Shown in pieces: positions 1 through 19,987 of a stretch of DNA of 61,890 nucleotides; within the stretch, counting starts at the first letter, position 1; each line of letters starts with the position of its first letter. Under the pieces are notes generated by a model. The model was given only the letters and a program-made list of their open reading frames with translations, made no database searches and was not told where the DNA came from. This stretch comes from Candidatus Kerfeldbacteria bacterium (GTDB lineage: Bacteria > Patescibacteriota > Patescibacteriia > SBBC01 > CAIJZX01): positions 1 to 61,890 of the forward strand of contig CAIJZX010000029.1 in assembly GCA_903825245.1 (NCBI GenBank), written 5' to 3'. The position numbers and the translations under genes are program-made.

Positions 1-2298
1 AAACTTGCCGGCTTCAATCTTCGAGACGTTGAGGAATTGGTTGATCAGCCGGATCATACGCTGCGATTCGCCGAGCAAATCGACGAGTATTTTTTGGTGT
101 TCCGGTTTAATTTTACCGAAATCCCCTTGTGTCATCATCGACAAGTATCCCATGATGCCCGTCATCGGCGTCCGCAATTGGTGCGAGGCGATTGATACGA
201 ATTCCGATTTCGCCCGGTCGAGTTCTTGCAAGTGTTTGTTGGCGTCTTCCAGCTGATCGTTCGTTTTGCGAATTCTATCGAAGAGCGTGATGTTTCGAGC
301 GACAACGCCGAGTTCATCAGCCATCGATTGCAAGGTTTCGATTTCGCGCTGGGAAATTTGCGCTCGCTCGCGTTTCGCCCCGACCTCAATCACGCCGATA
401 ACTTTTTGCTCGGACACAATCGGCACGAGAATCATGGTCCGAATGCCGATCGCCTTCTGCATCGCATTGGCAATGAGCTTCGGAATCGGCGGCGACAACA
501 CCTCTGCCATACTGTTTGAAAATCGAACTTCACCAGTATTGATGACATCATATGCTAGCGTATGTTGGCTTTGATTCGTTAGGTCTGTTGTGTACGTCGA
601 AACTTGCTTCGGTAACAATTTCATCGCTTTCGTTGTCAACGGTGTTTCGGTTACGGCGCGCGCGCGAAGCGTTTTCCCGTCGTCATCGAGTAAAATAAGA
701 ATCGCGCCTAAGAAACCGAGCTCCGTCGCAACAGCGTTAGCAATATTTTGTACGACCTTACCAAAATCAAGCGTACGGGTAATGTCCTTCGTAATCGTTT
801 GCAGGGTTTGCAACGACACGTTCCGATCGCGCAATTCTTTTGTTGCGTCGTCTACTTTTACTTTTAGATCTTCGCTGAACTCGCGGACTTCTTCGTACAA
901 GCTCGCTTTTTGAATCGCTGACCCGATTTGTGGCGCGAGGACATCAATCAACTGCGTATCCTCGTTCGAGAACGAATCGCCGGAGAGTTTTGGTCCAAGC
1001 GTTAAGACGGCAACGAGATGATTTTCCGAGAAAATTGGCGCAACCAGGGCAACACCAAGACGTTCAAACTCTGCTTTCGAAGCAATTTCCTTATCGCGAT
1101 CCGGTCCTTCCGGGGTATCTTCAATTTTTCGTTCTAACGCTTCGAGTAATGATAGGTGTTGGTGGTCGCGGACGAAACGAATAAGCGGGCTATCATTTGC
1201 AATAACAATATCTGTCTTAGGATAAACGTCCTCAGCGGTCACCGAAAACTTCGTCGTTTTGCCTTGTTTATCTTGGGTGCGCAGTAATATCAAGCTATTT
1301 TTTACTTTGAGACCTTGCGTCAGTTCTTTTTCAAGATCATCGAGCAGTTTTTGGAGATCGAGTTCTATTGAAATAATTGAACTTAGGTTTTGTAGTAGTT
1401 TTGTATATTCAATTTTTGCTTGAAAAAAGACCTTATCGGTAGTTTTTGACAATAATCTTTTTAACGGGTCTAAGCCAGTAACAACAAGTATGGCAATTAC
1501 TATTGAAATTCCAGTTCTAGCGCTAGAAGAGCCATTAAAAAATTGTGCAGAGAGTAATAATACAGAAATAAACAACAATGCTACTAATGTCACTAGAATA
1601 CCGTATATCAGTGACCTAGTAAGGACAACCCTAATATCGAGTAGCCTATGCCGTATGATCGCATAAAAAGTGAAGCCTACCCAAATTAATGAGCTTGGAC
1701 TATCAAGGAAGGCGAGATTTGGAAAACCGATTGATGTAAACAATACGCCAGCAGTTATAGCCAGAAGACCATATCCAACCATCCCGAATAAAGTGTATCG
1801 TAGTTGCTCTCTTAAAACCCCATGCGAATTTTTATAATATCTATTCGTAATAAGTACCACATAAATGAATGTAAAAAGTTGGGCTACCAACATCACATCG
1901 AACCATGGTCCGGACACACCCTTAAATACGATTGGGGATATTCTATGGATATTAGTTAAAAATCCTGGCAAAAATGTAATAAGAAAAACAAAAAGGCCAA
2001 GAATAATAAATGGTACTATTTTCTTTAGTGAAACAGATCTGCCTTCTACAAAGTACTGAACCCATATAATTCCTGCACAAGTCAAAGACACTCCAATTCC
2101 CCATATTGGTGGGAGTATTTGGGTCAATCCAGTCAATCGTAATAGAATATTTAAAACTCCAATCAAGGAAGACAATATGGCAATAACAAAAAACCATTGA
2201 TTAGAGATGTTTCTACTATTTCTCTTCAACGCAAGTATTCCAAGAAAAGCATTCGAAACCGCAGCTATCGACATTATTATTAATGCTGCTTGGTACAT
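1..2298 (-). CDS. Sensor histidine kinase: N-terminal 7TM (HisKA_7TM-like) domain, extra TM helices, two GAF-like domains, HisKA; 3' end runs off the window
   Basis: Not in the ORF track because it is truncated. Hand translation from ATG at 2298 (MYQAALIIMSIAAVSNAFLG...) is open to base 1. It contains hydrophobic helices ending FYAIIRHRLLDI, GAF-like segments (LVAPIFSENHLVAVLTLGPK; ILVPIVSEQKVIGVIEVG) and the H-box ELDRAKSEFVSIASHQLRTP. Confidence 0.9.
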   Translation of the reverse strand, partial: MYQAALIIMSIAAVSNAFLGILALKRNSRNISNQWFFVIAILSSLIGVLNILLRLTGLTQILPPIWGIGVSLTCAGIIWVQYFVEGRSVSLKKIVPFIILGLFVFLITFLPGFLTNIHRISPIVFKGVSGPWFDVMLVAQLFTFIYVVLITNRYYKNSHGVLREQLRYTLFGMVGYGLLAITAGVLFTSIGFPNLAFLDSPSSLIWVGFTFYAIIRHRLLDIRVVLTRSLIYGILVTLVALLFISVLLLSAQFFNGSSSARTGISIVIAILVVTGLDPLKRLLSKTTDKVFFQAKIEYTKLLQNLSSIISIELDLQKLLDDLEKELTQGLKVKNSLILLRTQDKQGKTTKFSVTAEDVYPKTDIVIANDSPLIRFVRDHQHLSLLEALERKIEDTPEGPDRDKEIASKAEFERLGVALVAPIFSENHLVAVLTLGPKLSGDSFSNEDTQLIDVLAPQIGSAIQKASLYEEVREFSEDLKVKVDDATKELRDRNVSLQTLQTITKDITRTLDFGKVVQNIANAVATELGFLGAILILLDDDGKTLRARAVTETPLTTKAMKLLPKQVSTYTTDLTNQSQHTLAYDVINTGEVRFSNSMAEVLSPPIPKLIANAMQKAIGIRTMILVPIVSEQKVIGVIEVGAKRERAQISQREIETLQSMADELGVVARNITLFDRIRKTNDQLEDANKHLQELDRAKSEFVSIASHQLRTPMTGIMGYLSMMTQGDFGKIKPEHQKILVDLLGESQRMIRLINQFLNVSKIEAGKF

Positions 2299-2305
2299 GA
2301 TTATT

Positions 2306-3517
2306 CTACTCCTTGATGGTTTTAAAGAATTCGATTACTTTATTTACGTCACCCTCTGTGTGTTGTGATGTAAAGTTAAAGCGCACACGACTTTCACCCC
2401 ATGGTACTGCGGGATACCTTACTACGGAAGCCATGATCCCGGCTATTGCCAATTCCTTCTCTACTTCGATGGATTTATTGTCATCACCAAGCATTACAAG
2501 CATAACTGGAGCGTTACCTCCAAGCACCTCAAACCCTAAATCAGCTATTCCGTGTTTAAATTGTTTGGCTAATAATATTATTTTTTTTCTGTCTTCAGAA
2601 GACTGTTTCACTAACTTAATTGATTCATTAACGGCTGCCGAAAGTATCGGCGGCAACGGCGCCGATAATATGCTTGTTTTTGATGCGACACGGATATAAT
2701 CAATCAAGTCATGATTACCGGCAACGAACCCCCCAAAAACCCCAAAGGCTTTTGTCATAGTGCCCATATAGAAATCCACATCTTTAATATTTTGATCAAA
2801 ATATTCGGGGGTACCGCCTCCATTCTCGCCTAAAACCCCAATAGCATCCGCATCATCAAGCCACAGCATAGCTGAATATCTTTTCTTTAGTTCAATAATT
2901 CTAGGGAGAGGCAATATACTACCATCTGTTGTAAACACTCCCTGTGTAATAATTAATTTTCTTTCCGTTTTACAATTTTTTAAAGCTTTTTCCAATTCGA
3001 CCATGTCATTATGTTTATATACAACCTTTTCACATTTCGCTAGTCTAATCGCATCATGTATACTTCCATGATTACTTTTGTCACTAAAAACCGTTATCTC
3101 ATCTCGTTTAGGATCACGTCCCGACATTCCCGGGATGTTAATCGGATTTATTATTGTGGGTAAGGCTCCAATATTAGCCATATAACCAGTTGAAAAAACT
3201 ATTGCGTCATCAGCCCCGATAAATGCTGCAAGGGTTTTTTCAAGTTCCTCGTGAATATCATGACTACCACCTAAAACTCTTGTCGAACCAGAGCTAATCC
3301 CATATTTCTTTAAAGCAGCAACTACTGCATCCTTAACCTTTTCATTATCTGACATCCCTAAATAATTATTTGAGGTAAAATTTAAAACCTCCTTGCCTCC
3401 TATTTGTACTTTTGATTTTGAACCAGATGTGTGAGAAATCGTTGGCTTTGGGAAAAGGCCAGCTTTCTTTATTATTTCTATAATAGCGGAGTAAACTGAG
3501 GTGGGAGAGCTATACAT
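2306..3517 (-). CDS. PLP-dependent alpha-oxoamine synthase family protein (BioF/Kbl/SPT/CqsA-like)
   Basis: Motifs NFTSNNYLG, FSTGYMANIG, NHGSI, GTMTKAFGVFGGF (PLP lysine), YPAVPWGESRVRF. Confidence 0.9.
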   Translation of the reverse strand: MYSSPTSVYSAIIEIIKKAGLFPKPTISHTSGSKSKVQIGGKEVLNFTSNNYLGMSDNEKVKDAVVAALKKYGISSGSTRVLGGSHDIHEELEKTLAAFIGADDAIVFSTGYMANIGALPTIINPINIPGMSGRDPKRDEITVFSDKSNHGSIHDAIRLAKCEKVVYKHNDMVELEKALKNCKTERKLIITQGVFTTDGSILPLPRIIELKKRYSAMLWLDDADAIGVLGENGGGTPEYFDQNIKDVDFYMGTMTKAFGVFGGFVAGNHDLIDYIRVASKTSILSAPLPPILSAAVNESIKLVKQSSEDRKKIILLAKQFKHGIADLGFEVLGGNAPVMLVMLGDDNKSIEVEKELAIAGIMASVVRYPAVPWGESRVRFNFTSQHTEGDVNKVIEFFKTIKE

Positions 3518-4367
3518 GTTTTTCGATAGGTTTATGGTTTGCTAAGTAATCTTTCTGCATCGCACGAAAATCAATTATAAGATTTTTGGTTATAGCACCA
3601 ACCGAACCCCCCAATATTAACTTATTATCAACTTGAGTTACTGGCATTATGTTCATTGATGTACTCGTAATGAAACACTCATCAGCAGTATATACTTCTT
3701 CCAAAGTGATATTATCCTCCAAATATTTATAGCCCGAATCGATTACTTCAAGTAATTTTATTCTTGTAACCCCATCTAATATATCGTTAATTTTTGCACT
3801 TTTTATAACTCCATCTTTCACAATAAAAAAGTTCGTTCTGGTACCTTCGGTTACAAATCCTTTACTATTGATCAGCAGACTATCCATTGCTCCCTGTTGC
3901 ACCGCCATCGAATATGCAACGTAGTTCAAGAGAGTATTAATTGATTTTGCCTTTGGAATAAATCTCTCGCCACGATATGTCACCAACTTTGCACCTTGAG
4001 AATAAATGGCATCCTTATAAAAGGTTAAGCCTAAATGGAAAATATATACATCTGAAGAAGTATTTTTCTCGGCATCCCCAAACATAATTATCCTAATTAA
4101 GCCATCTTTAATCTTATCGATTGAGCATTTCTTTTCTATCCATCCAGTTATATCGGTTTCAATATAACTATTGTTAATACCAAGTAGAGAGGCCGAATTC
4201 AAGAGTCTTTTAGCATGTAATTCTGGATAGAAAATCTTACCCTGTAGCACTTTTATTGACTCATATACACCATAATTAAACCATATCGCTTTATTCGAGA
4301 CGTGGACTGTTGCATCAGCGAAATTTAGTATTTCCCCATTACGAATTATTTTTTGATTATTATCCAT
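3510..4367 (-). CDS. Class IV (fold-type IV) PLP aminotransferase (IlvE/D-amino acid aminotransferase/PabC-like)
   Basis: YGVYESIK, KAKSIN (lysine), EGTRTNFFIV, ILDGVTR, ADECFITSTS; overlaps the next gene by 8 nt. Confidence 0.9.
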   Translation of the reverse strand: MDNNQKIIRNGEILNFADATVHVSNKAIWFNYGVYESIKVLQGKIFYPELHAKRLLNSASLLGINNSYIETDITGWIEKKCSIDKIKDGLIRIIMFGDAEKNTSSDVYIFHLGLTFYKDAIYSQGAKLVTYRGERFIPKAKSINTLLNYVAYSMAVQQGAMDSLLINSKGFVTEGTRTNFFIVKDGVIKSAKINDILDGVTRIKLLEVIDSGYKYLEDNITLEEVYTADECFITSTSMNIMPVTQVDNKLILGGSVGAITKNLIIDFRAMQKDYLANHKPIEKHV

Positions 4368-4428
4368 ATTTAATTTATCTCTATACCTAAACCGCTAGGC
4401 CAAGTAAGTTAGTATAGCATTAAAGCAT

Positions 4429-5106
4429 TCATTTCTTTCTCGAAATAATTAATACCGTTCCTCCAATTAAAAAACCACTAGGCAAAACGGCCAATAACGG
4501 ATTTGTAATAACTGCAAAGAAGGTTGCCCACAAATTTAATATAATTGCAGGAACACCGCCCACGACTATAGACGCTATTAGGATTGCTAGATTCTGTTTG
4601 TGTGGTCCATCAATCTTATTATATCTAATAATTAGCAATATTATTGCCAAAATGAAGAGGAACGCAATGGAAATTTGAAAAAAAGCAAACAATGGACCCG
4701 GAGTTAATATGCCAGGACTATTAGGCGTGATTTGATATGAAGAATATATTGTTTTTGTAAAGAAAGCCAGGCAAGAATAGATAATACCTATTGAAATAAA
4801 AAGTAGTTTATGTATTTTATCAAACCTAAAAATCGGATATGGATAAATAAAACTAAAATATATTAACGATAAAACGAAAATAATGGCAAATATAAAAATT
4901 GAGTTAACTGCTACGTTAATAAAAATACTTGGGTTAGTATATGAGGTTAGAGCATTTGAAATAACCCATAAACCGGTACTTATCACCATAATCGACATCA
5001 CTTTACGAATTTCGCTTTTCGAGTTTGTCACCCAAAAAAATACGCCGAGTATCAACTCCCCAATCCCCACCAAATACGTTAACGTCAGTAAAATATCTTT
5101 TGTCAT
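4429..5106 (-). CDS. Stand-alone HisKA_7TM-like membrane sensor domain protein (copy 4)
   Basis: About 7 hydrophobic helices. Start moved to the ATG at 5106 (MTKDILL), which overlaps the upstream TGA as ATGA. N-terminus LTYLVGIGELILGVFFWVTNSKSEIRKVM is shared with its neighbours. Confidence 0.8.
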   Translation of the reverse strand: MTKDILLTLTYLVGIGELILGVFFWVTNSKSEIRKVMSIMVISTGLWVISNALTSYTNPSIFINVAVNSIFIFAIIFVLSLIYFSFIYPYPIFRFDKIHKLLFISIGIIYSCLAFFTKTIYSSYQITPNSPGILTPGPLFAFFQISIAFLFILAIILLIIRYNKIDGPHKQNLAILIASIVVGGVPAIILNLWATFFAVITNPLLAVLPSGFLIGGTVLIISRKK

Positions 5107-5756
5107 TTCTTTCGTACGATATATGTTGTCGCCCCTAGCCAAACAATACTTGAAATCGGCCCATACAAGTAGTTATAGGGCACGTTTTCCATGAAGTGGA
5201 ATATTGCAAAGAACACACCTGGCAATCCGGCGATAAGCAATGAAAAAAAGATTATCATTGTGTTCTTTTTAGCTACACCTTCCAGTTTCGTTAATTTCCA
5301 TATAATTAACCCTAAACCCAAGAAATATAACAGGGCAAGGTAAAAATTGAACGCTGGAAAAATTGAACCTCCAGTTGTGTATCCAGCGTTATTTACAAGA
5401 TACATGTCCGCCACAACAACCCTTGTCCATAAAAGTAAGTAAGAAAAGAAAGCCCACGGAAGATATAGACCTAGCACATGTAGCCGATCGAAAGTAAATT
5501 TTCGATAAGGAAAAACAATGGCAAAGTGAACCATAGCCGTTAGTAACAGTGCGCCGAATACAAAAGGTAACACTCCAACCAATGAATACTCACTGTTTGT
5601 CATGGCGTTCGTTATCCCCCACCCTGCCGTCGCAAAAGCTAAGATCGCCATAACCCGTCGAATTTCACTCTTCGAATTCGTCGCCCAAAAGTAGATGGCG
5701 AGAATAAGTTCTCCGATACCAACCAAGTACGTTAATGCCAGTAGCAGTGTCTTCAT
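5103..5756 (-). CDS. Stand-alone HisKA_7TM-like membrane sensor domain protein (copy 3)
   Basis: Start at ATG 5756 (MKTLLL) with ATGA overlap; LTYLVGIGELILAIYFWATNSKSEIRRVM; ends WLGATTYIVRKK. Confidence 0.8.
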   Translation of the reverse strand: MKTLLLALTYLVGIGELILAIYFWATNSKSEIRRVMAILAFATAGWGITNAMTNSEYSLVGVLPFVFGALLLTAMVHFAIVFPYRKFTFDRLHVLGLYLPWAFFSYLLLWTRVVVADMYLVNNAGYTTGGSIFPAFNFYLALLYFLGLGLIIWKLTKLEGVAKKNTMIIFFSLLIAGLPGVFFAIFHFMENVPYNYLYGPISSIVWLGATTYIVRKK

Positions 5757-6427
5757 TTTCGCATGACTATGTAACTTGTTGTTCCCAACCAAATGATCGT
5801 CGAAATCGGTCCTATAAGTGGATAACTTCCGCCATTAGTAAAAATAGGCACAATAACATCTAAATAAATAGAAGGTAAACTACCTAAAAATAATGACAGC
5901 ATAACCCCTAATGTGTTCCGACGATGAATTCCGTCAGCCTTTTTATATTGCAACCAAAAAACTACGATGGAAATAAGAAAAACGATCAGGATGAAAAATG
6001 TATAAAAAGGATACAGCGGACCTCCCGACCATTTTCCTGAAACATTGGGGTTGAAAACTGATTGAGCAATACTTGGTTGATCTTTAACCAGAATTGCAGC
6101 AAACATGACCGATGGTATGTACATAAGTACATAATGTAATTTATCTAGACGTATCAGTGGATATGGATAAAGAAGGGCTAGATTAAACAACGCGGTAACC
6201 ATAAACGGCGCTAAAGAAAAAGTGAGGTTGTCTACGGATTTGATCACCTCGCTACTACCCGAATAGGACGTAAACGCATTCGCTACCACCCAAATTCCAG
6301 TGGCAAGAGAAAGAAAGGCCATTACCTTCCTGACTTCATTTTTCGAATTCGTTTTCCAAAAATAACCAGCCAGTAACAACTCTCCGAACCCAACCATATA
6401 CGTTAAGGTGATAAGAAATATTTTCAT
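5753..6427 (-). CDS. Stand-alone HisKA_7TM-like membrane sensor domain protein (copy 2)
   Basis: LTYMVGFGELLLAGYFWKTNSKNEVRKVM; ends WLGTTSYIVMRK; ATGA overlaps at both ends. Confidence 0.8.
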   Translation of the reverse strand: MKIFLITLTYMVGFGELLLAGYFWKTNSKNEVRKVMAFLSLATGIWVVANAFTSYSGSSEVIKSVDNLTFSLAPFMVTALFNLALLYPYPLIRLDKLHYVLMYIPSVMFAAILVKDQPSIAQSVFNPNVSGKWSGGPLYPFYTFFILIVFLISIVVFWLQYKKADGIHRRNTLGVMLSLFLGSLPSIYLDVIVPIFTNGGSYPLIGPISTIIWLGTTSYIVMRK

Positions 6428-7089
6428 TTCCGTGCCAAAACGTAAGTAGAAACGCTAAATAAAAGTAGTGCATGAAGACCGCCAATCGGAATCCTCGGAT
6501 GGCCGAGCGCCGGACGAATGACATCGAAGAACACCGCTAGTCCCGTCGTAACAAATAAGGTCAACACAAAGAGTCGAATCGAGCTTTGCGAAACGCCCTG
6601 CGCTAATGGAACTTTCTTCAGCAGTACTACAACACTAGCAATAAATAGGGTGCAGATAACTACCGGAAAGAGCCAAAAAAACAGGCCATACGTCTCATGA
6701 ATACCGCCGGAAACGAATTCGACGCTCTTCAGAAACGACGGATTGAGGAATATATAGGGCAAAAAGAACGCAATCGGCACGATCCAGAGCAGCGCATTTT
6801 TCACCGGAAGGCGTTTCGTCGGAAATGGAAAGAAGAGGCTAAACATCAGAATCATCGAAAACGTCCAGACGCCTCCGAAAAAACCAATCCGATCAAACAG
6901 AAGCGCAATTGAGGCGTCTTTTGTCGAAAAGAGTACTACTTGAGCCGTCATCATTATCGCCAAACCGACCAACACCCCGGAAAGATACAAGACCGAGTGG
7001 GAGCGTTGGTATTTCTTGACCATCCAAAACGCCGTGGCGATCGAAACCGCAATAAACACCGCGTAAATAGCGACGAGGAAGCTATTCAT
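6424..7089 (-). CDS. Stand-alone HisKA_7TM-like membrane sensor domain protein (copy 1, divergent)
   Basis: Same length and hydropathy pattern (FSLFFPFP, TYGLFFWLF, ends STYVLARK); more GC-rich than copies 2-4. Confidence 0.7.
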   Translation of the reverse strand: MNSFLVAIYAVFIAVSIATAFWMVKKYQRSHSVLYLSGVLVGLAIMMTAQVVLFSTKDASIALLFDRIGFFGGVWTFSMILMFSLFFPFPTKRLPVKNALLWIVPIAFFLPYIFLNPSFLKSVEFVSGGIHETYGLFFWLFPVVICTLFIASVVVLLKKVPLAQGVSQSSIRLFVLTLFVTTGLAVFFDVIRPALGHPRIPIGGLHALLLFSVSTYVLARK

Positions 7090-7286
7090 TGCGCATAGAC
7101 AATTTCCCGCTCCGGTTGTCCCGGGTGGGCAATAAAACTGATGTCACTACTTCTTTTTTTGTGATAACGCCTGAAAAGTCAGTCACGGCGAAGATGTATT
7201 AAAATACACCATGACTATAACAGAAAGACCGAAAAAATGCAAACTATACTGCTTTTAGCTGAAACCCACCAAAAATTGAAAACGCT

Positions 7287-8546
7287 TTACTGTTCTATGC
7301 CAAGAAATGTGTAAATAATTGAGCCAACCTTTACCTTGTTTGCCTCGGGCACTTTGCTATCCGCGGGTTCGCGCATTTCACCAACAACCTGGTTAAACAG
7401 AATCCGGGCTTTATTGGTTCGCAAATCTTGGATAACTACTTTCTTCGGTCCCAACCCATTATTTGTGGTAAAGATGGTAACCGGGACAAACCGGGATGTT
7501 GGGTCAAAGTGCTGCACCTCACCAGCAATGGTGATCTGACGATCACTGTTATGGGTAAAATTATGATACCACTCGCCGTTATTCTGGTAATAGTACCCCG
7601 CTAAATTGCGATCCAAGACGTCTGGATAATACTTAAGGATTGGGGTGATATTGGTAAAGGCAGAAGTCATCAGGTTAAAACGGACATATTGTGCGCCATA
7701 ATTATCGCTCGCCATATCACGCTTAAGAAAAATGACGCTTTGACCATCTGGTTCAAGCCATTGATACGTATATGTTAGCCCGGCATCACCGGTTGGCGAC
7801 TGAAAGTTCCGTTGAAGTTCTGTAAATGTCCCCGTTGATAAATCAACCATTCCTAAAACTTGCAAATTGAGTTCCTCTTGTGAATTAATTTGGATCAATA
7901 CCTTGGCATCAGACTGAAAATCTAAAACATCAATTTTGAGTGGAGCAACGTTACCAACGCCGAAGTCTTTTTGTTGAAGAGTTTTTGTTGAAAAAGTTTT
8001 TGTATCAAAAATGCGAAAGGAAAATACCATCGGACAAGGACCCTCTTTAACGACCGCACTACACGTAAGGTCAGTAGTAACTACATACGTACCGTCGGGA
8101 CTTTGTCGCGTTTTGATAAAAGGATTAGCGTCTGTTATTTGCTTGTCTGTCACCCGCACTGAGATAACCTTGCCCTGTTTATCGAGCGTCGTAATCGTGC
8201 CTATCGGCGCCGGCGTTATTGCAACAGAACTCTCTTTCTCTAAAAAATCAGTAATCGTCAATCCAGAAGGGGTAAACTTTGCTTGATCGGAATACATAAC
8301 AAGGTTTGAATCCGTAAATATTTTTCTTGGAGCTCCAGTCATTCCGTCTACACGATAGATGGTATTCCGACCGCGGGCATTTCCGGCAAGATCAAAGCCA
8401 GTGACCGATAAAGCCGAATAGTATGCCGAAAAATGAGTTTGGTTATTATTGATAATATTACCTAAATACCAGAAAGCTGTGCTACAAATAATGAAGAATA
8501 TGACGCTGACAACCGTTATATATGATGTACGTAATGTTCGATACAT
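7287..8546 (-). CDS. Membrane-anchored extracytoplasmic beta-propeller-like protein
   Basis: One N-terminal TM helix, then beta-rich repeats with SPDG/EPDG/DPTS turns (TolB/PD40-like). Confidence 0.6.
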   Translation of the reverse strand: MYRTLRTSYITVVSVIFFIICSTAFWYLGNIINNNQTHFSAYYSALSVTGFDLAGNARGRNTIYRVDGMTGAPRKIFTDSNLVMYSDQAKFTPSGLTITDFLEKESSVAITPAPIGTITTLDKQGKVISVRVTDKQITDANPFIKTRQSPDGTYVVTTDLTCSAVVKEGPCPMVFSFRIFDTKTFSTKTLQQKDFGVGNVAPLKIDVLDFQSDAKVLIQINSQEELNLQVLGMVDLSTGTFTELQRNFQSPTGDAGLTYTYQWLEPDGQSVIFLKRDMASDNYGAQYVRFNLMTSAFTNITPILKYYPDVLDRNLAGYYYQNNGEWYHNFTHNSDRQITIAGEVQHFDPTSRFVPVTIFTTNNGLGPKKVVIQDLRTNKARILFNQVVGEMREPADSKVPEANKVKVGSIIYTFLGIEQ

Positions 8547-8618: not shown

Positions 8619-9341
8619 TTAGAACTGTTTCATGTATGTCGGCTTGTAGGCCGTGTAGCCGCCCAGCTGATTCCACGCGAACGAGTGACGAGCAATCACG
8701 AAGGTTCCGTTGCGATCGACATTATTCGAGTCGATCAAATCCAGACCCCAACCGAGATTAGCCGCCACAATGGCACTATGTTCGCCAGGACTCAGATGCT
8801 GTATAACCCACCCAGTTTTCGCCTGGGTGATATCACAAGGTGTCATGTAACCGCTGTAGTCGTAACCACCACCAGGCAGCACCAGATGCCAGCCGTTTCC
8901 GATACCGTACGACGAACGGTACAGAACCAGATCGACGAAGAACTTGCAGTAGCCGCCGAGGTGACCACCACCATACGTCCCGTCGATACTTCCACGGTTA
9001 ACTGTCCCGCCAATGTAGCTGGTCATGACATTCAATGCAGTGTTATCACTGCGCACGTAGTCCCAGTCGCCGAGATGGATGCCCTTGTAGACGATAGTCG
9101 ACGACCCGGTCCGGTAGACGTTCAACGCATAGCATGCTTCACTAAACACGTTGTTACTCCAGTCCACACCGGTATACGTGGCATCCGGCGTTGCCACCGG
9201 CTTCTGGACGTGACTCGTGTCCGTAACTGCCTGGACGTCCGTTGCCGTCGGCTCAGTCATCTTGTTCACTTTCGAACAAGCGCCGAGAGACATGGCCAGC
9301 ATCATCATTGCTACGAGGCACTTCACCTGATTCGCCTTCAT
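8619..9341 (-). CDS. Lipoprotein with CHAP/NlpC-P60-like cysteine hydrolase domain
   Basis: Signal peptide with lipobox LGAC; Cys...His...acidic pattern GGYCKFFV / GEHSAIV / LIDSN; SD AAGGAG upstream. Confidence 0.7.
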   Translation of the reverse strand: MKANQVKCLVAMMMLAMSLGACSKVNKMTEPTATDVQAVTDTSHVQKPVATPDATYTGVDWSNNVFSEACYALNVYRTGSSTIVYKGIHLGDWDYVRSDNTALNVMTSYIGGTVNRGSIDGTYGGGHLGGYCKFFVDLVLYRSSYGIGNGWHLVLPGGGYDYSGYMTPCDITQAKTGWVIQHLSPGEHSAIVAANLGWGLDLIDSNNVDRNGTFVIARHSFAWNQLGGYTAYKPTYMKQF

Positions 9342-9749
9342 TGTGTACTCCTTGGCTTCTCCACACAGGGTGTGGGAGCGTCTGTACTTCGGGATTTTCG
9401 GCCTACGGCACTGCGTGGAGTGAATTGTCTTTCACCCCCTTTCGCGTACGTACTTTGTGAAGGATGCTCTGTGTAAAGCTTACTTAGGCACTACGTGTTT
9501 GGGCACCTCCTTTTCGATTTGTAAAGAACGATGAACCGTTGGCTTGCACAGGTTTGCGATCGGTATTTCCAGTGTTCACCGGAAATTCGACAACACAAAA
9601 CCGGCCTGATGCAGGATGTTTTCCTACACCGCCATCGTTTGCCTCACCTTAGCGAAGAACAAAACGGTGGCACGACCTTCTCCCCAAGAGGAGAAGAGCA
9701 AGCCACCGATTCGTACTTCTAGGGTACTCTTTTTTTGGGGAAAGTCAAG
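9220..9749. repeat. Direct repeat copy 1: promoter, long leader and first ~40 codons of the lipoprotein
   Basis: Aligns by eye with 11533-12092. Near-identical over 9220-9355 and 9529-9715, diverged between. Confidence 0.95.
9529..9715 (-). ncRNA. Candidate structured leader RNA (multibranch core), copy 1
   Basis: Closing stem GAATCGGTGGCTTGC / GCAAGCCAACGGTTC encloses four hairpins. It begins just after a TTGACT-N16-TACCCT promoter (9721-9748). Confidence 0.65.
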
Positions 9750-9773: not shown

Positions 9774-10913
9774 CTATTTCACTATCGCTGCGCGAATGAT
9801 ATTATTTACTGAATCGACATATTGGTTCTGTACTTTCATCATAGAGGAAATCGTTCTTGTAGAAATCCAGCCGACCTCTTGAAGTGGCGGAATATCAAGG
9901 AGAAGCTTTGTGCCGTCGGGTGACCAGACTGATTGCCCAAGATTTATATTCTCGGTGAATGGCGTGGCGGACAAAGTCGTTTCGTGTTGTGTTACTAAGT
10001 CAAGTCGAGTAAATACTCCCGCCTCTTGGCCAGAAATTTTCTTTACATAGATAACCGATTTACCATCAGGGCTCGGCAAACTCACTGGGCCATCTGACCA
10101 CGTGGTAATAGGATAATCAGTTGTAGTTGCCGTTTCAAGATGGTAGCTGTGTAGCCCTTGACCATCGAGCCAAAGCAGAATTGATTGTTGACCGCTATCT
10201 GGTGTTGTGGAAATAGCACTGTTCATGTAGATAGCACTGGAAATATTTTCTTTTATTTCCGAAGCTTTCCCGTTATCCGATCTATACCACGTAACACCTT
10301 CGGTCATATTTCCAATGACATATACTAAATGCTGCAAGTCATCGCTTGACCAAATAAAAGTAAATCCGTTTTTTGATGCAGGTAATGTTGTGGCAACATC
10401 AAGCACTGTTTGAACCGTTTTACTGGAAATACTCAGTTCCACGACAGATGTGATAACTCCTTCCGTTCCATCACTCGTCGAACTATTCGGATCAATAAGT
10501 TCAACAACTAAACTATTTTCATTGGCAGTCCAAAATACACTTCGTATTTGTTGTGATGCTGGAGTTGTATACAGTAACGTCAGTGTTTGTTCTGGATACT
10601 GCAACAGATACAGGGAACGATTATCTGTTGTGAGAATCGCTTCTTGTTTTTTTGAAGGCGCAAGATATTGAAGCGTTTTCACGAAGGACAACTTGCTCGC
10701 CGGAATACGTGTATATGCAACCCCGGTAGCAGCATTAATACGGTAATCGTTAGTCAAGAGGTCGCAATTACAAAAAGTGTTCAGCGTCGAAATAGTAGCT
10801 TGGCTACCCTTCGGTTTAGGTTTGTTTTGTAAATTCACATAGAAACATCCTACACCCACGATGAGCATGATAATAACCACAGCTGCAAATATTTTAGTCG
10901 GATAATTTTTCAT
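9774..10913 (-). CDS. Membrane-anchored TolB/PD40-like beta-propeller protein
   Basis: Start moved to ATG 10913 (MKNYPTK), 6 nt after a TATACT -10 box. TM helix, then WTANE/WSSDD/PSPDG/WSPDG repeats. Confidence 0.7.
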   Translation of the reverse strand: MKNYPTKIFAAVVIIMLIVGVGCFYVNLQNKPKPKGSQATISTLNTFCNCDLLTNDYRINAATGVAYTRIPASKLSFVKTLQYLAPSKKQEAILTTDNRSLYLLQYPEQTLTLLYTTPASQQIRSVFWTANENSLVVELIDPNSSTSDGTEGVITSVVELSISSKTVQTVLDVATTLPASKNGFTFIWSSDDLQHLVYVIGNMTEGVTWYRSDNGKASEIKENISSAIYMNSAISTTPDSGQQSILLWLDGQGLHSYHLETATTTDYPITTWSDGPVSLPSPDGKSVIYVKKISGQEAGVFTRLDLVTQHETTLSATPFTENINLGQSVWSPDGTKLLLDIPPLQEVGWISTRTISSMMKVQNQYVDSVNNIIRAAIVK

Positions 10914-10951
10914 GTATAGAGTATAATAAAATTCTACAATATTGTCGAAAG

Positions 10952-10988
10952 AAAAAGTGCTGGGTGAAGCTTGAGCATCACCCAGCAT
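10952..10988 (-). terminator. Intrinsic terminator after lipoprotein 2
   Basis: Minus strand TGCTGGGTGA-tgctcaagct-TCACCCAGCA followed by CTTTTT. Confidence 0.75.
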
Positions 10989-11000
10989 GAACGAGGAGGC

Positions 11001-11654
11001 CTAACCGCCAATGACCTGGTAAATAGTGTAACTGCCGCCAGAAGTCGATTCGAATTTGGCGTAAGTCACATAGTGGATTTCCAAGCCACCGAGAAAGTCC
11101 ATATTGCAGTCAATGACGTAAACGCCATTTCCGTCATTGGACCAGATGATCATGGTGTGGGGCCAACTTCCCCAACTGGCCTGGACGATCTGTCCACGCT
11201 GAGCGCCGTTGATCGGCATACCAGCAGGACCATAGCCAGGAATGTTAACATACTGGCCAGCTGCCCATCTCGACCACGACGTACTCGCGGGTAGGGAGGC
11301 GACGTTACGAGAAGCAACGAGAACAACGTGCTGTGCCCAGGTCTTGCAATTGTATCCGGACGGACGAGAAAGCTTGTTGAGTCCGCCGCCAAGCGCAACC
11401 ATTTCGGTATTTGCTTCCTGGCAAATCGCTTCGTTTCTCTGCGCCTGGGTAAGGCTCCGCCACCACTGCTGATTCGCAACAGTACCGCCGAAATTACCTG
11501 CCCCCGGCTTCTGAACGCCAGAAACGCTGGAATCCGTAACTGCCTGGACGTCCGTTGCCGTCGGCTCAGTCATCTTGTTCACTTTCGAACAAGCGCCGAG
11601 AGACATGGCCAGCATCATCATTGCTACGAGACACTTCACCTGATTCGCCTTCAT
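11001..11654 (-). CDS. Lipoprotein with CHAP/NlpC-P60-like cysteine hydrolase domain (paralog with divergent C-terminus)
   Basis: Start at ATG 11654; first ~40 aa identical to 8619..9341. Motifs GYNCKTWA / WPHTMII / VIDCN. Confidence 0.7.
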   Translation of the reverse strand: MKANQVKCLVAMMMLAMSLGACSKVNKMTEPTATDVQAVTDSSVSGVQKPGAGNFGGTVANQQWWRSLTQAQRNEAICQEANTEMVALGGGLNKLSRPSGYNCKTWAQHVVLVASRNVASLPASTSWSRWAAGQYVNIPGYGPAGMPINGAQRGQIVQASWGSWPHTMIIWSNDGNGVYVIDCNMDFLGGLEIHYVTYAKFESTSGGSYTIYQVIGG

Positions 11655-12092
11655 TGTGTACTCCTTGGGCTTCTCCACGCGGTGCGTGGGAGCGTCTGTA
11701 CTGCAGGATTTGCAGCCAATCGGCACTGCGTGGAGTGAATACTTATTCACCTCCCTTCGCGTGCGTATAACGTGAAGGATGCTATGGGATTAAGCATTTT
11801 CAGGTACTACGTGGTTGAACACCTCCTTATGATTGTCACGTAAATCTTTCGCCACGTGGCACTGTAATGAGCGATGAACCGTTGGCTTGCACAGGTTTGC
11901 GATCGGTATTTCCAGTGTTCACCGGAAATTCGACAACACAAAACCGGCCTGATGCAGGATGTTTTCCTACACCGCCATCGTTTGCTTCACCTTGGGTAAA
12001 ATCAAAACGGTGGCACGACCTTCTCCACAGAGGAAGAAGAGCAAGCCACCGATTCGTAACTACAGGATACTCCTTCGGAGGAAAATGTCAAG
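11533..12092. repeat. Direct repeat copy 2
   Basis: Matches 9220-9749; promoter TTGACA-N16-TATCCT at 12064-12091 (minus strand). Confidence 0.95.
11872..12058 (-). ncRNA. Candidate structured leader RNA, copy 2
   Basis: Same fold as 9529-9715; differences are limited to two hairpin tips and preserve pairing. Confidence 0.65.
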
Positions 12093-19716: not shown

Positions 19717-19987
19717 TCCGGGATCGTCTCATGGTAGGACTCCATCCAGCACCACACTGGGTGCTGGATAAAGGTTCCCCGGCCCGCTTCGCCTGCTCCT
19801 AAATTCAAAATGTTTTCTGATTCCGGGATCGTCTAATGGTAGGACTCCAGGTTCTGGACCTGGCTATCTTGGTTCGAATCCAGGTCCCGGAGCCACAAGA
19901 CATGTTGAATTACCTCTGGATTTCGTCGGCGAAGCAAACGGGGCGGGCTGGACCTGGCTATCTTGGGTCGAGTCCTGTGCCTGGGAA
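19717..19987 (+). pseudogene. Split, degenerate tRNA-Gln whose halves flank the intact tRNA
   Basis: 5' half TCCGGGATCGTCTCATGGTAGGACTCC (19717-43), AGGTT (19772-76), 3' half CTGGACCTGGCTATCTTGGGTCGAGTCC... (from 19948). Confidence 0.7.
19822..19895 (+). tRNA. tRNA-Gln(CTG)
   Basis: Acceptor TCCGGGA/TCCCGGA, anticodon arm CCAGG-TTCTGGA-CCTGG, T-loop TTCGAAT, encoded CCA. Confidence 0.96.

Follow-up and report, generated by a model that had tools for sequence, protein, structure and literature searches.

Gene content of the locus

The window analysed here, a stretch of 61,890 nucleotides (nt), is the entire contig C29 of a Candidatus Kerfeldbacteria genome (1.30 Mb, 42 contigs, 49.3 % GC, rated 100 % complete) that belongs to the candidate phyla radiation (CPR). 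At one end of the window the minus strand carries, in order of transcription, genes for four free-standing seven-transmembrane proteins (7TM-a, -b, -c and -d), a class IV aminotransferase, an alpha-oxoamine synthase (AOS) and a histidine kinase with an N-terminal 7TM sensor. By comparison with the other genomes of its class, this locus is one allele of a putative modular two-component system found across this CPR class, and the comparison hints at a different small lipid-like compound being produced and sensed in every lineage.

Throughout, G-numbers denote genomes of the class, G000 being the window's own and G002 that of a congener, and P-numbers denote database proteins. The features of the locus are listed below in the order of transcription; the free 7TM proteins are given with their scores against the Pfam family HisKA_7TM (PF16927, gathering cut-off 28.6 bits), and protein lengths are in amino acids (aa).

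7090..7286, minus strand: spacer upstream of the array, 197 nt, with the sole promoter-like site near the operon start
6424..7089, minus strand: 7TM-a, 221 aa, first gene of the array; PF16927 29.5 bits; GC 0.474 against 0.493 for the genome
5753..6427, minus strand: 7TM-b, 224 aa; PF16927 44.1 bits
5103..5756, minus strand: 7TM-c, 217 aa from the ATG at 5756 (open reading frame (ORF) called from the TTG at 5792); PF16927 29.2 bits
4429..5106, minus strand: 7TM-d, 225 aa from the ATG at 5106 (ORF called from the TTG at 5142); PF16927 25.9 bits; GC 0.331
3510..4367, minus strand: class IV (fold IV) aminotransferase dependent on pyridoxal phosphate (PLP), 285 aa; PF01063 143.9 bits
2306..3517, minus strand: AOS of the BioF/Kbl/SPT superfamily, 403 aa, 'DDAD' clade; PF00155 172 bits
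2846..2848, minus strand: GAT codon of AOS Asp224, at the conserved His position of the family's D-D-x-H motif
1609..2298, minus strand: 7TM sensor of the kinase, residues 1-230 (the swapped part); GC 0.34-0.37
1..1608, minus strand: kinase residues 231-766, comprising the linker, two GAF domains and HisKA; continues on contig C31

All the genes described from the sequence alone are present in the order and at the minus-strand coordinates first read, and they are co-directional and tightly packed. The junctions a/b, b/c and c/d of the array are all ATGA stop/start overlaps (3/3), the aminotransferase and AOS genes overlap by 8 nt, and the kinase ATG at 2298, with AAGGAG just ahead of it, lies exactly the 7 nt after the AOS stop that had been reported. 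A terminator scan of the region found no convincing internal terminator. The promoter-like site in the spacer (7243-7214, TTTGCA-18-TATAGT with TG) is a consensus match only, and such sites were rarer across the region than in shuffled sequence (13 versus 24.1). GC content is 0.48-0.50 over nt 1-1200 and drops to 0.33-0.39 in a stretch that takes in the sensor, both enzyme genes and 7TM-d.

A stretch of 141 nt is shared without mismatch by the end of contig C31 and the start of C29 (window 1-141 = L006:11860-12000), indicating that both contigs abut and that the kinase gene spans the join. The GAF_2 model matches the kinase in two stretches (76.3 bits), the second GAF domain covering aa 510-665; HisKA covers aa 696-764 (62.8 bits), and the continuation on C31 contains HATPase_c (98.2 bits). 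Between the kinase stop and a gene for a single-domain CheY-like response regulator there is a DUF559 gene (L006:10870-11250, minus strand; 126 aa, Vsr-like endonuclease fold, 93.3 bits), and in at least 11 relatives the regulator directly follows the kinase. The H-box and the N and G boxes of the kinase, as well as the Asp and Lys residues of the receiver, are visible in the translations, and both proteins look catalytically intact.

The sequence-only reading had seen the same 7TM pattern in the kinase N-terminus as in the free proteins. The motifs themselves are there: in a five-way alignment, the Gly of a G-P/S-x-F stretch is invariant and the last helix ends Y-x-I/V-x-R-K or R-H. PF16927 is passed by three of the four free proteins, 7TM-d (34-35 % identical to 7TM-b and 7TM-c) falling just below the cut-off, and does not match the kinase N-terminus, whose direct comparison with the four free 7TMs gave an hhalign probability of 28 % and a BLASTP E of 0.061. 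PF16927 scores 37.7-67.4 bits in 15 out of the 16 intact full-length kinases scanned in relatives (the exception being that of G010, and the kinase fragment of G007 being set aside), and a profile of the four free 7TMs matches the N-termini of the relatives' kinases with E-values from 1e-19 to 1e-5, from which homology of the window kinase N-terminus to HisKA_7TM would follow by transitivity. The sensors closest to it (P0158-P0161) likewise have no precomputed PF16927 match.

Enzyme cassettes and kinase sensors across the class

Exactly one match to the kinase at E<=1e-60 was found in each of 69 out of 401 genomes of the class. Loci were gathered from 56 places and their genes labelled by Pfam, NCBIfam and BLAST, counting the 51 full-length orthologous kinases with upstream sequence. 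Left out of the count were G007 (in-frame stops), G174 (kinase at a contig end), a fragment in G021, the shorter paralogous kinases of G038 and of contig C24 of G035, and the kinases cut at contig ends in G012, G013, G015, G020, G063, G123, G246 and G329; ten further loci (G249, G127, G269, G213, G096, G355, G157, G081, G273 and G318) were outside the sample.

Directly upstream of the kinase, all 51 orthologous loci carry a co-directional cassette of ORFs whose type varies between genomes, and a recognisable enzyme domain occurs in 50 of these 51 cassettes. Their types were as follows.

16 loci: TIGR03694-type GNAT, with or without ThiF, methyltransferase and unknown ORFs
9 loci: methyltransferase sets
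2 loci: Methyltransf_20-type
7 loci: AOS
5 loci: CoaC-transglutaminase-CoaB
5 loci: PlsC / AMP-binding / HAD
2 loci: GT1-like glycosyltransferase
2 loci: ThiF and PaaK-like ligase
1 locus: phosphatidylserine decarboxylase (154.7 bits)
1 locus: another GNAT
1 locus (G080): 296-aa ORF with no Pfam match, for which enzyme status cannot be claimed

Up to five cassette types occur in one GTDB family, and one type can be spread over up to eight families. The locus had been proposed to be polymorphic, and it is so even within the genus: the cassette of the congener G002 is wholly different, encoding a Glu/Leu/Phe/Val-type (ELFV) dehydrogenase, a PaaK-like ligase, an Acg-family nitroreductase and a Rv1355c-like ThiF protein. 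The linkage of synthase and kinase recurs in other genomes as well, since an AOS gene lies beside the kinase in eight orthologous loci from six GTDB families, as well as beside two paralogous kinases; besides the window, the loci in which it immediately precedes the orthologous kinase are those of G007, G028, G348, G274, G346, G288 and G333. A sister locus in G038 has an acyl ligase, an AOS and a NAD-dependent reductase beside a 7TM-GAF kinase. The AOS-linked kinase of G007 (C2:780159-782339; L042:7133-9965) contains two TGA and one TAA codons inside the match, and may be a decaying allele or reflect assembly errors.

Cassette labels were fixed before the covariation test, which included 48 scorable kinases, three singleton cassette types being excluded, and which used as control the contrast between two halves of the same protein. 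The nearest neighbour of the sensor (aa 1-230) had the same cassette in 42/48 kinases, and in 40/48 when the neighbour came from another family, figures that were both reached in none of 2000 label shuffles; the corresponding figures for the core (aa 401-766) were 11/48 and 4/48, reached in 410 and 1851 of 2000 shuffles, respectively. These shuffle counts are not probabilities, because related genomes are not independent. Conversely, the nearest neighbour was from the same family for 10/40 sensors and for 40/40 cores. The covariation of enzymes and sensor N-terminus across genomes that the sequence-only reading had envisaged is thus present, with the sensor following the cassette and the core following taxonomy. 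Ancient paralogous kinases with differential loss were considered as the source of this pattern and rejected, because every one of the 69 genomes has a single match and the core neighbours are all from the same family.

The change from one behaviour to the other is located at the end of the 7TM domain. In bins of 40 residues, pairs of kinases that come from one family but differ in cassette show identities of 19-29 % as far as aa 200 and of 49-90 % beyond it, which places the switch of the profile at about aa 200; pairs that share a cassette across families exceed these values in all of the first five bins and fall below them in the later ones. The window kinase follows this pattern, being 51-66 % identical to P0158-P0161 and 15-30 % to G002 over aa 1-230, and 62-96 % identical to G002 and 21-50 % to P0158-P0161 over aa 301-766. 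Likewise, blastn similarity between the window and G002 is limited to nt 2-1440, with none beyond. By these identities, the window kinase is a mosaic.

A longest contig of 39,899 nt is listed for each of P0159 (sensor), P0005 (AOS, 52 %) and P0125 (aminotransferase, 43 %), one of 52,641 nt for both P0161 and the AOS P0004, and eight contigs, the longest of 46,411 nt, for both the AOS P0003 and the aminotransferase P0122; the closest sensors appear in this way to be co-located with the closest enzymes. After P0158-P0161, six of the seven next-best matches to the window sensor belong to kinases preceded by an AOS gene. Across 11 AOS-linked loci, the identity of the AOS rises with that of the sensor (Spearman 0.49 over 55 non-independent pairs) and not with that of the core (Spearman -0.28 over 45 pairs).

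The enzymes, the free 7TM array and the flanking sequence

The aminotransferase falls below all NCBIfam cut-offs, its best model being that of the branched-chain aminotransferase (BCAT) subfamily (158.6 bits versus 363). In the PDB it matches D-alanine aminotransferase (105.7 bits) and BCAT (103.7 bits) best, its catalytic Lys being kept in the alignment, and its relatives include fold-IV amine transaminases. Close relatives are rare, with identities of 64, 46, 45, 43 and 39 %, and of at most 37 % for the next.

The AOS was compared with BioF, Kbl, SPT and CqsA by scores of curated hidden Markov models and of PDB searches. No curated cut-off was passed: the AOS reached 356.4 bits with the BioF model TIGR00858 (cut-off 426.45), 334.2 with the Kbl model NF005394 (460), 285.5, 260 and 217 with three NCBIfam Spt models (500-670; 640 for the best) and 165 with the CqsA-type model NF005526 (428). 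The PDB searches gave 244 bits for Kbl, 226 for Thermus BioF/Kbl, 213 for SPT, 159 for E. coli BioF and 89 for CqsA, whose chains came last among 48 matches. Kinship with the autoinducer synthases CqsA and LqsA, as had been suggested from the sequence, is not supported by these model and PDB scores. The absence of other biotin genes noted in the window extends to the whole genome: in searches of G000 at E<=1e-5, neither BioB nor BioA was found, and Tdh (TIGR00692) was not matched either. As the AOS is moreover the sole member of its superfamily in the genome, biotin synthesis and threonine breakdown are unlikely roles for it.

Residues Lys256, His150, Asp221 and Arg377/379 are invariant in the AOS comparison; we take them to be the PLP-binding (Schiff-base) Lys, the stacking His, the Asp contacting the pyridine nitrogen and the carboxylate-binding Arg, respectively. 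The motif His is kept in the ten other AOS of the class (10/10), and is replaced by Asp224 in the window. All five closest database AOS (77, 76, 51, 51 and 50 % identity; alignments A4/A5) carry Asp at this position, which indicates a conserved sub-clade trait and not a sequencing error, and they also have in common with the window AOS an altered T-T-D-G-S stretch and a 14-residue insertion. A search of metagenome and genome contigs with the 'DDAD' AOS alignment A5 found only relatives of at most 40 % identity. None of the four further genomes of the genus has the AOS; of 41 relatives, with G000 counted among them, 7 have it. Relatives of the AOS include P0014/P0056, a 640-aa fusion of AOS and PlsC acyltransferase and a 545-aa fusion of PilZ and AOS.

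Within the G000 genome, matches to PF16927 are confined to the array. An AlphaFold2 model of 7TM-b (pLDDT 93.3, pTM 0.91) shows seven helices with a beta-hairpin between helices 4 and 5. A Foldseek search with this model retrieved class A G protein-coupled receptors (best E 8e-4, TM-score 0.50-0.68, root-mean-square deviation 5-9 Å, 10-15 % identity); this likeness was rejected as evidence of homology or of a lipid ligand, being a generic resemblance among seven-helix bundles.

The free 7TMs best match other free 7TMs of their own GTDB family, but even those of the congener are no more than 35-45 % identical, the best relative of 7TM-b being a free 7TM of G002 (45 %). In another genome, their nearest neighbour was from the same family in 40 of 60 cases and had the same cassette in 20 of 60. 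Identity to the kinase sensors is only about 25 %. The idea of recent copies or spare parts of the kinase sensor was rejected, as no free 7TM is among the 12 best matches of the window sensor. By these comparisons the free 7TMs form a paralog family apart, whose relationships go with taxonomy and not with cassette type, and their initial interpretation as spare or alternative sensors for signal variants found no support.

Genes for free 7TM or 7TM-GAF proteins (455-490 aa, with no kinase domains) lie upstream in 39 of 52 loci. The free modules of other families are of this 7TM-GAF kind (ca. 455-490 aa), often with an asparaginase gene close by, as in loci L050, L059, L063-L068, L074, L076-L079, L083-L085, L087, L089 and L092. 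A search with a free-7TM profile over 1.84 billion representatives retrieved 14,336 relatives at E<=1e-3; among the best 150 of these 14,336, 110 are free-standing (at most 262 aa) and 14 have at least 1050 aa. The long relatives combine 2-4 HisKA_7TM domains in tandem with GAF/PAS, HisKA and HATPase_c domains in one protein (e.g., P0175, P0251 and P0178), and these tandem-7TM kinase fusions suggest that the free units work together with a kinase.

Just upstream of the array there are two genes for membrane-anchored proteins of ca. 400 aa with no Pfam match (7287-8546 and 9774-10988, both minus strand). Weak relatives (21-28 % identity) of these proteins occupy the same position in G006 and G017, that of G017 bearing a PD40 beta-propeller repeat. 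A repeat of ca. 530 nt (9220-9749 and 11533-12092; 82-99 % identity) takes in the leader and the 5′ end of each of two lipoprotein-like genes (8619-9341 and 11001-11750); the products of these genes are identical over the first ca. 40 residues. The sole Rfam match at gathering score in the whole window is a tRNA gene (19822-19892, plus strand). PADLOC defence models matched none of eight window proteins, and gave weak matches only for the DUF559 protein and the receiver encoded on C31.

A search for sequencing runs that contain the window listed no RNA run; four DNA runs from one study contain 24-36 % of the sampled window words, in short low-depth contigs only. In three of the four runs (X1, X2 and X3), such contigs diverge from the window at 4860, inside 7TM-d, and at 7146, just upstream of 7TM-a, continuing into the same unlike sequence in all three; these breaks may be alternative junctions in co-existing strains.

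Proposed function and alternative explanations

In the mechanism we propose, a vertically inherited core (GAF-GAF-HisKA-HATPase) and a CheY-like regulator would carry an exchangeable front end, made up of an enzyme cassette and its matched 7TM sensor. In the window's allele, the AOS would produce an alpha-aminoketone by condensing an amino acid and an acyl thioester, and the fold-IV aminotransferase, translationally coupled to the AOS, would either supply the amino acid or aminate the ketone, as BioA does after BioF. The resulting amphiphilic amine could partition into the membrane, where the co-acquired 7TM domain would bind it and set the activity of the kinase toward the regulator; the four free 7TMs may be accessory sensor subunits that act with the kinase in trans. 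Because the sensor travels with the cassette and the core with the organism, we lean towards the product of each cassette being the cue of its co-inherited sensor, a reading that seems to us somewhat probable. That the compound also acts between cells is a close call which tips slightly against it, and we hold as rather unlikely the broader idea of a chemical language, in which each lineage would release a small amphiphile of its own, to be recognised by a matching 7TM receptor borne on a shared kinase chassis.

Several observations weigh against a product-sensing system. Cassette labels were assigned by the analyst and some classes ('MT', 'FeeM') are heterogeneous; 6 of the 48 sensor nearest neighbours bear a different label; and the sensor adjoins the cassette, such that some co-transfer is expected from linkage alone. 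The co-location of the closest sensors and enzymes is deduced only from equal contig figures. The N-terminus of the window kinase has no PF16927 match even at E<=10, and the free 7TMs do not covary with the cassette (20/60). The AOS is nearest by sequence to BioF and Kbl, though under all curated cut-offs; no acyl carrier protein was found in the G000 genome, which has only one AMP-binding ligase; and the regulator has neither an output domain nor a DNA-binding domain. Finally, a quorum signal in particular is disfavoured by the many cassettes that consist of plain lipid enzymes.

This last point also favours a different role for the system, the tailoring of membrane lipids. The cassettes would then be housekeeping enzymes, particular to each lineage, that make or remodel membrane lipids out of scavenged precursors, and the 7TM domain would read the general state of the membrane, co-evolving with its lipids. 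Besides PlsC, a PlsC-HAD fusion, AMP-binding ligases and phosphatidylserine decarboxylase, the cassettes include lysophospholipase-like Hydrolase_4 proteins, GtrA, GT1 glycosyltransferases and CoaB/CoaC, and their GNATs weakly match OlsB models. In two of the five genomes checked (G030 and G293), the kinase-linked PlsC is the only PF01553 match of the genome which, together with the many plain lipid enzymes, makes this a serious rival. The trio of G038 recalls bacterial sphingolipid synthesis in two of its three steps, those of Spt and the reductase (PMC11087976). On the other hand, chemically unrelated cassettes in the congeners G000 and G002, and four to five types per family, would be odd for housekeeping functions, and ThiF, nitroreductase and ELFV dehydrogenase are not lipid enzymes. 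The sharp match of sensor and cassette, with its breakpoint at the end of the 7TM domain, suggests instead specific recognition. Moreover, G000 has its PlsC and ligase cluster elsewhere in the genome (C1:11973-14814), and on balance we judge lipid tailoring unlikely. That cluster comprises three PlsC-type matches in two frames beside the genome's only AMP-binding ligase; a set of PlsC and AMP-binding ligase is the kinase-linked cassette in other families.

Alternatively, the 7TM domain could detect an external, possibly host-derived compound that the adjacent enzymes consume or modify. The covariation data fit a substrate as well as a product. CPR bacteria scavenge lipids, and the small genome and the acyl carrier protein not found in it fit a dependence on imported lipids, on which the lysophospholipase-like and reacylation enzymes of sister cassettes would act. 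However, AOS and aminotransferase are biosynthetic enzymes whose substrates, an amino acid and an acyl thioester, are common metabolites for which a dedicated 7TM sensor would hardly be needed; the cassette stands ahead of the kinase within a single coupled operon, and is not a separately regulated target; and the regulator has no DNA-binding domain. We consider sensing of a substrate or host compound improbable. Very improbable is a recombination hot spot without functional coupling, in which the 5′ end of the sensor gene hitch-hikes with enzymes of BioF/Kbl-type metabolism: the best family scores of the AOS are indeed those of BioF and Kbl, adjacency alone predicts some co-transfer and the low-depth contigs of three of the four runs break off at 4860 and 7146, maybe at variable junctions, but hitch-hiking would scatter the breakpoints, and what is found is a step at ca. 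aa 200 with core neighbours from the same family in 40/40 and sensor neighbours with the same cassette in 42/48 cases, co-divergence of AOS and sensor, a conserved altered active-site motif in the AOS clade, no BioA, BioB or Tdh found in the genome, and an ORF cassette in 51/51 loci, with an enzyme domain in all but G080.

Sensing of the cassette product would have precedents in known systems. In the alpha-hydroxyketone quorum sensing systems CqsA/CqsS of Vibrio and LqsA/LqsS of Legionella, the kinase senses the lipid-like product of the enzyme. As in those systems, a PLP enzyme of the AOS superfamily is encoded in the window beside a polytopic membrane histidine kinase. However, the window AOS is outside the CqsA subfamily (165 bits versus 428; in PDB, 89 for CqsA versus 244 for Kbl), the sensor, apparently of the HisKA_7TM type, leads into two GAF domains, the part of the kinase on C31 bears no fused receiver, and the window adds an aminotransferase partner and a free 7TM array to an enzyme-sensor unit that is exchangeable class-wide. 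In the staphylococcal agr and Bacillus comQXP systems, hypervariable signal genes and sensor N-terminus are combined with a conserved cytoplasmic part of the kinase, and matched sets differ between close relatives. The window system has the same pattern of a variable block of cassette and sensor on a conserved core, with differing sets in the congeners G000 and G002; agr and comQXP, by contrast, vary one peptide chemistry within species, whereas here whole enzyme families are swapped across the families of the class and there are extra free sensor-like proteins. No peptide pheromone precursor or processing enzyme was found among the window genes.

The order of an AOS and then an aminotransferase reproduces the logic by which 7-keto-8-aminopelargonic acid (KAPA) is converted to 7,8-diaminopelargonic acid (DAPA). 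The AOS has its best scores with BioF and Kbl, but these are below both cut-offs, the aminotransferase is of fold IV and not a class III enzyme like BioA, and the motif His is an Asp. The cassette GNATs of all four relatives tested pass TIGR03694 (125-140 bits versus 112), resembling in this PEP-CTERM systems, and the window kinase has a weak match to the PrsK model TIGR02916 (29.7 bits over aa 133-471, comprising transmembrane and GAF regions), far below its 300-bit cut-off. According to PMC4897644, TIGR03694-type synthases are genetically linked to exosortase systems. The window has no such GNAT, and in the system described here many unrelated kinds of enzyme take the place of the synthase, and a matched sensor goes with each. 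Bacterial sphingolipid synthesis, as described in PMC11087976, involves three enzymes, Spt, the acyltransferase bCerS and the reductase CerR. The AOS superfamily includes Spt, and G038 has a ligase, an AOS and a reductase, but the window AOS reaches only 285 bits versus 640 for Spt, the window lacks a reductase and a second acyltransferase, and a fold-IV aminotransferase is not part of the pathway.

The CPR origin proposed from the sequence agrees with the names of its homologues (Patescibacteria, Candidatus Saccharibacteria). CPR bacteria, or Patescibacteria, are abundant and mostly uncultured, and how they perceive their partners and control their scavenged membranes is largely unknown. In the literature found, HisKA_7TM is merely listed among sensor domains, with no ligand, and the arrangement reported here was not described in the literature searched, gene tables in supplementary files being outside that search. 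The cassettes provide a candidate source of ligands for this sensor domain, and the locus is a natural example of a sensor that is swapped together with its matching enzymes while the kinase stays constant. If the ligands are indeed these products, some dozen pairs of enzyme and receptor would become available at once, of use for finding new lipid-like signals and lipids, for the study of 7TM specificity and for orthogonal synthetic signalling pairs. Should the idea of a chemical language also be true, CPR epibionts would gain strain-level 'chemotypes' for recognising kin, competitors and hosts, and the arrays of free 7TM and 7TM-GAF proteins would widen their receptor repertoire to compounds that the cell does not make.

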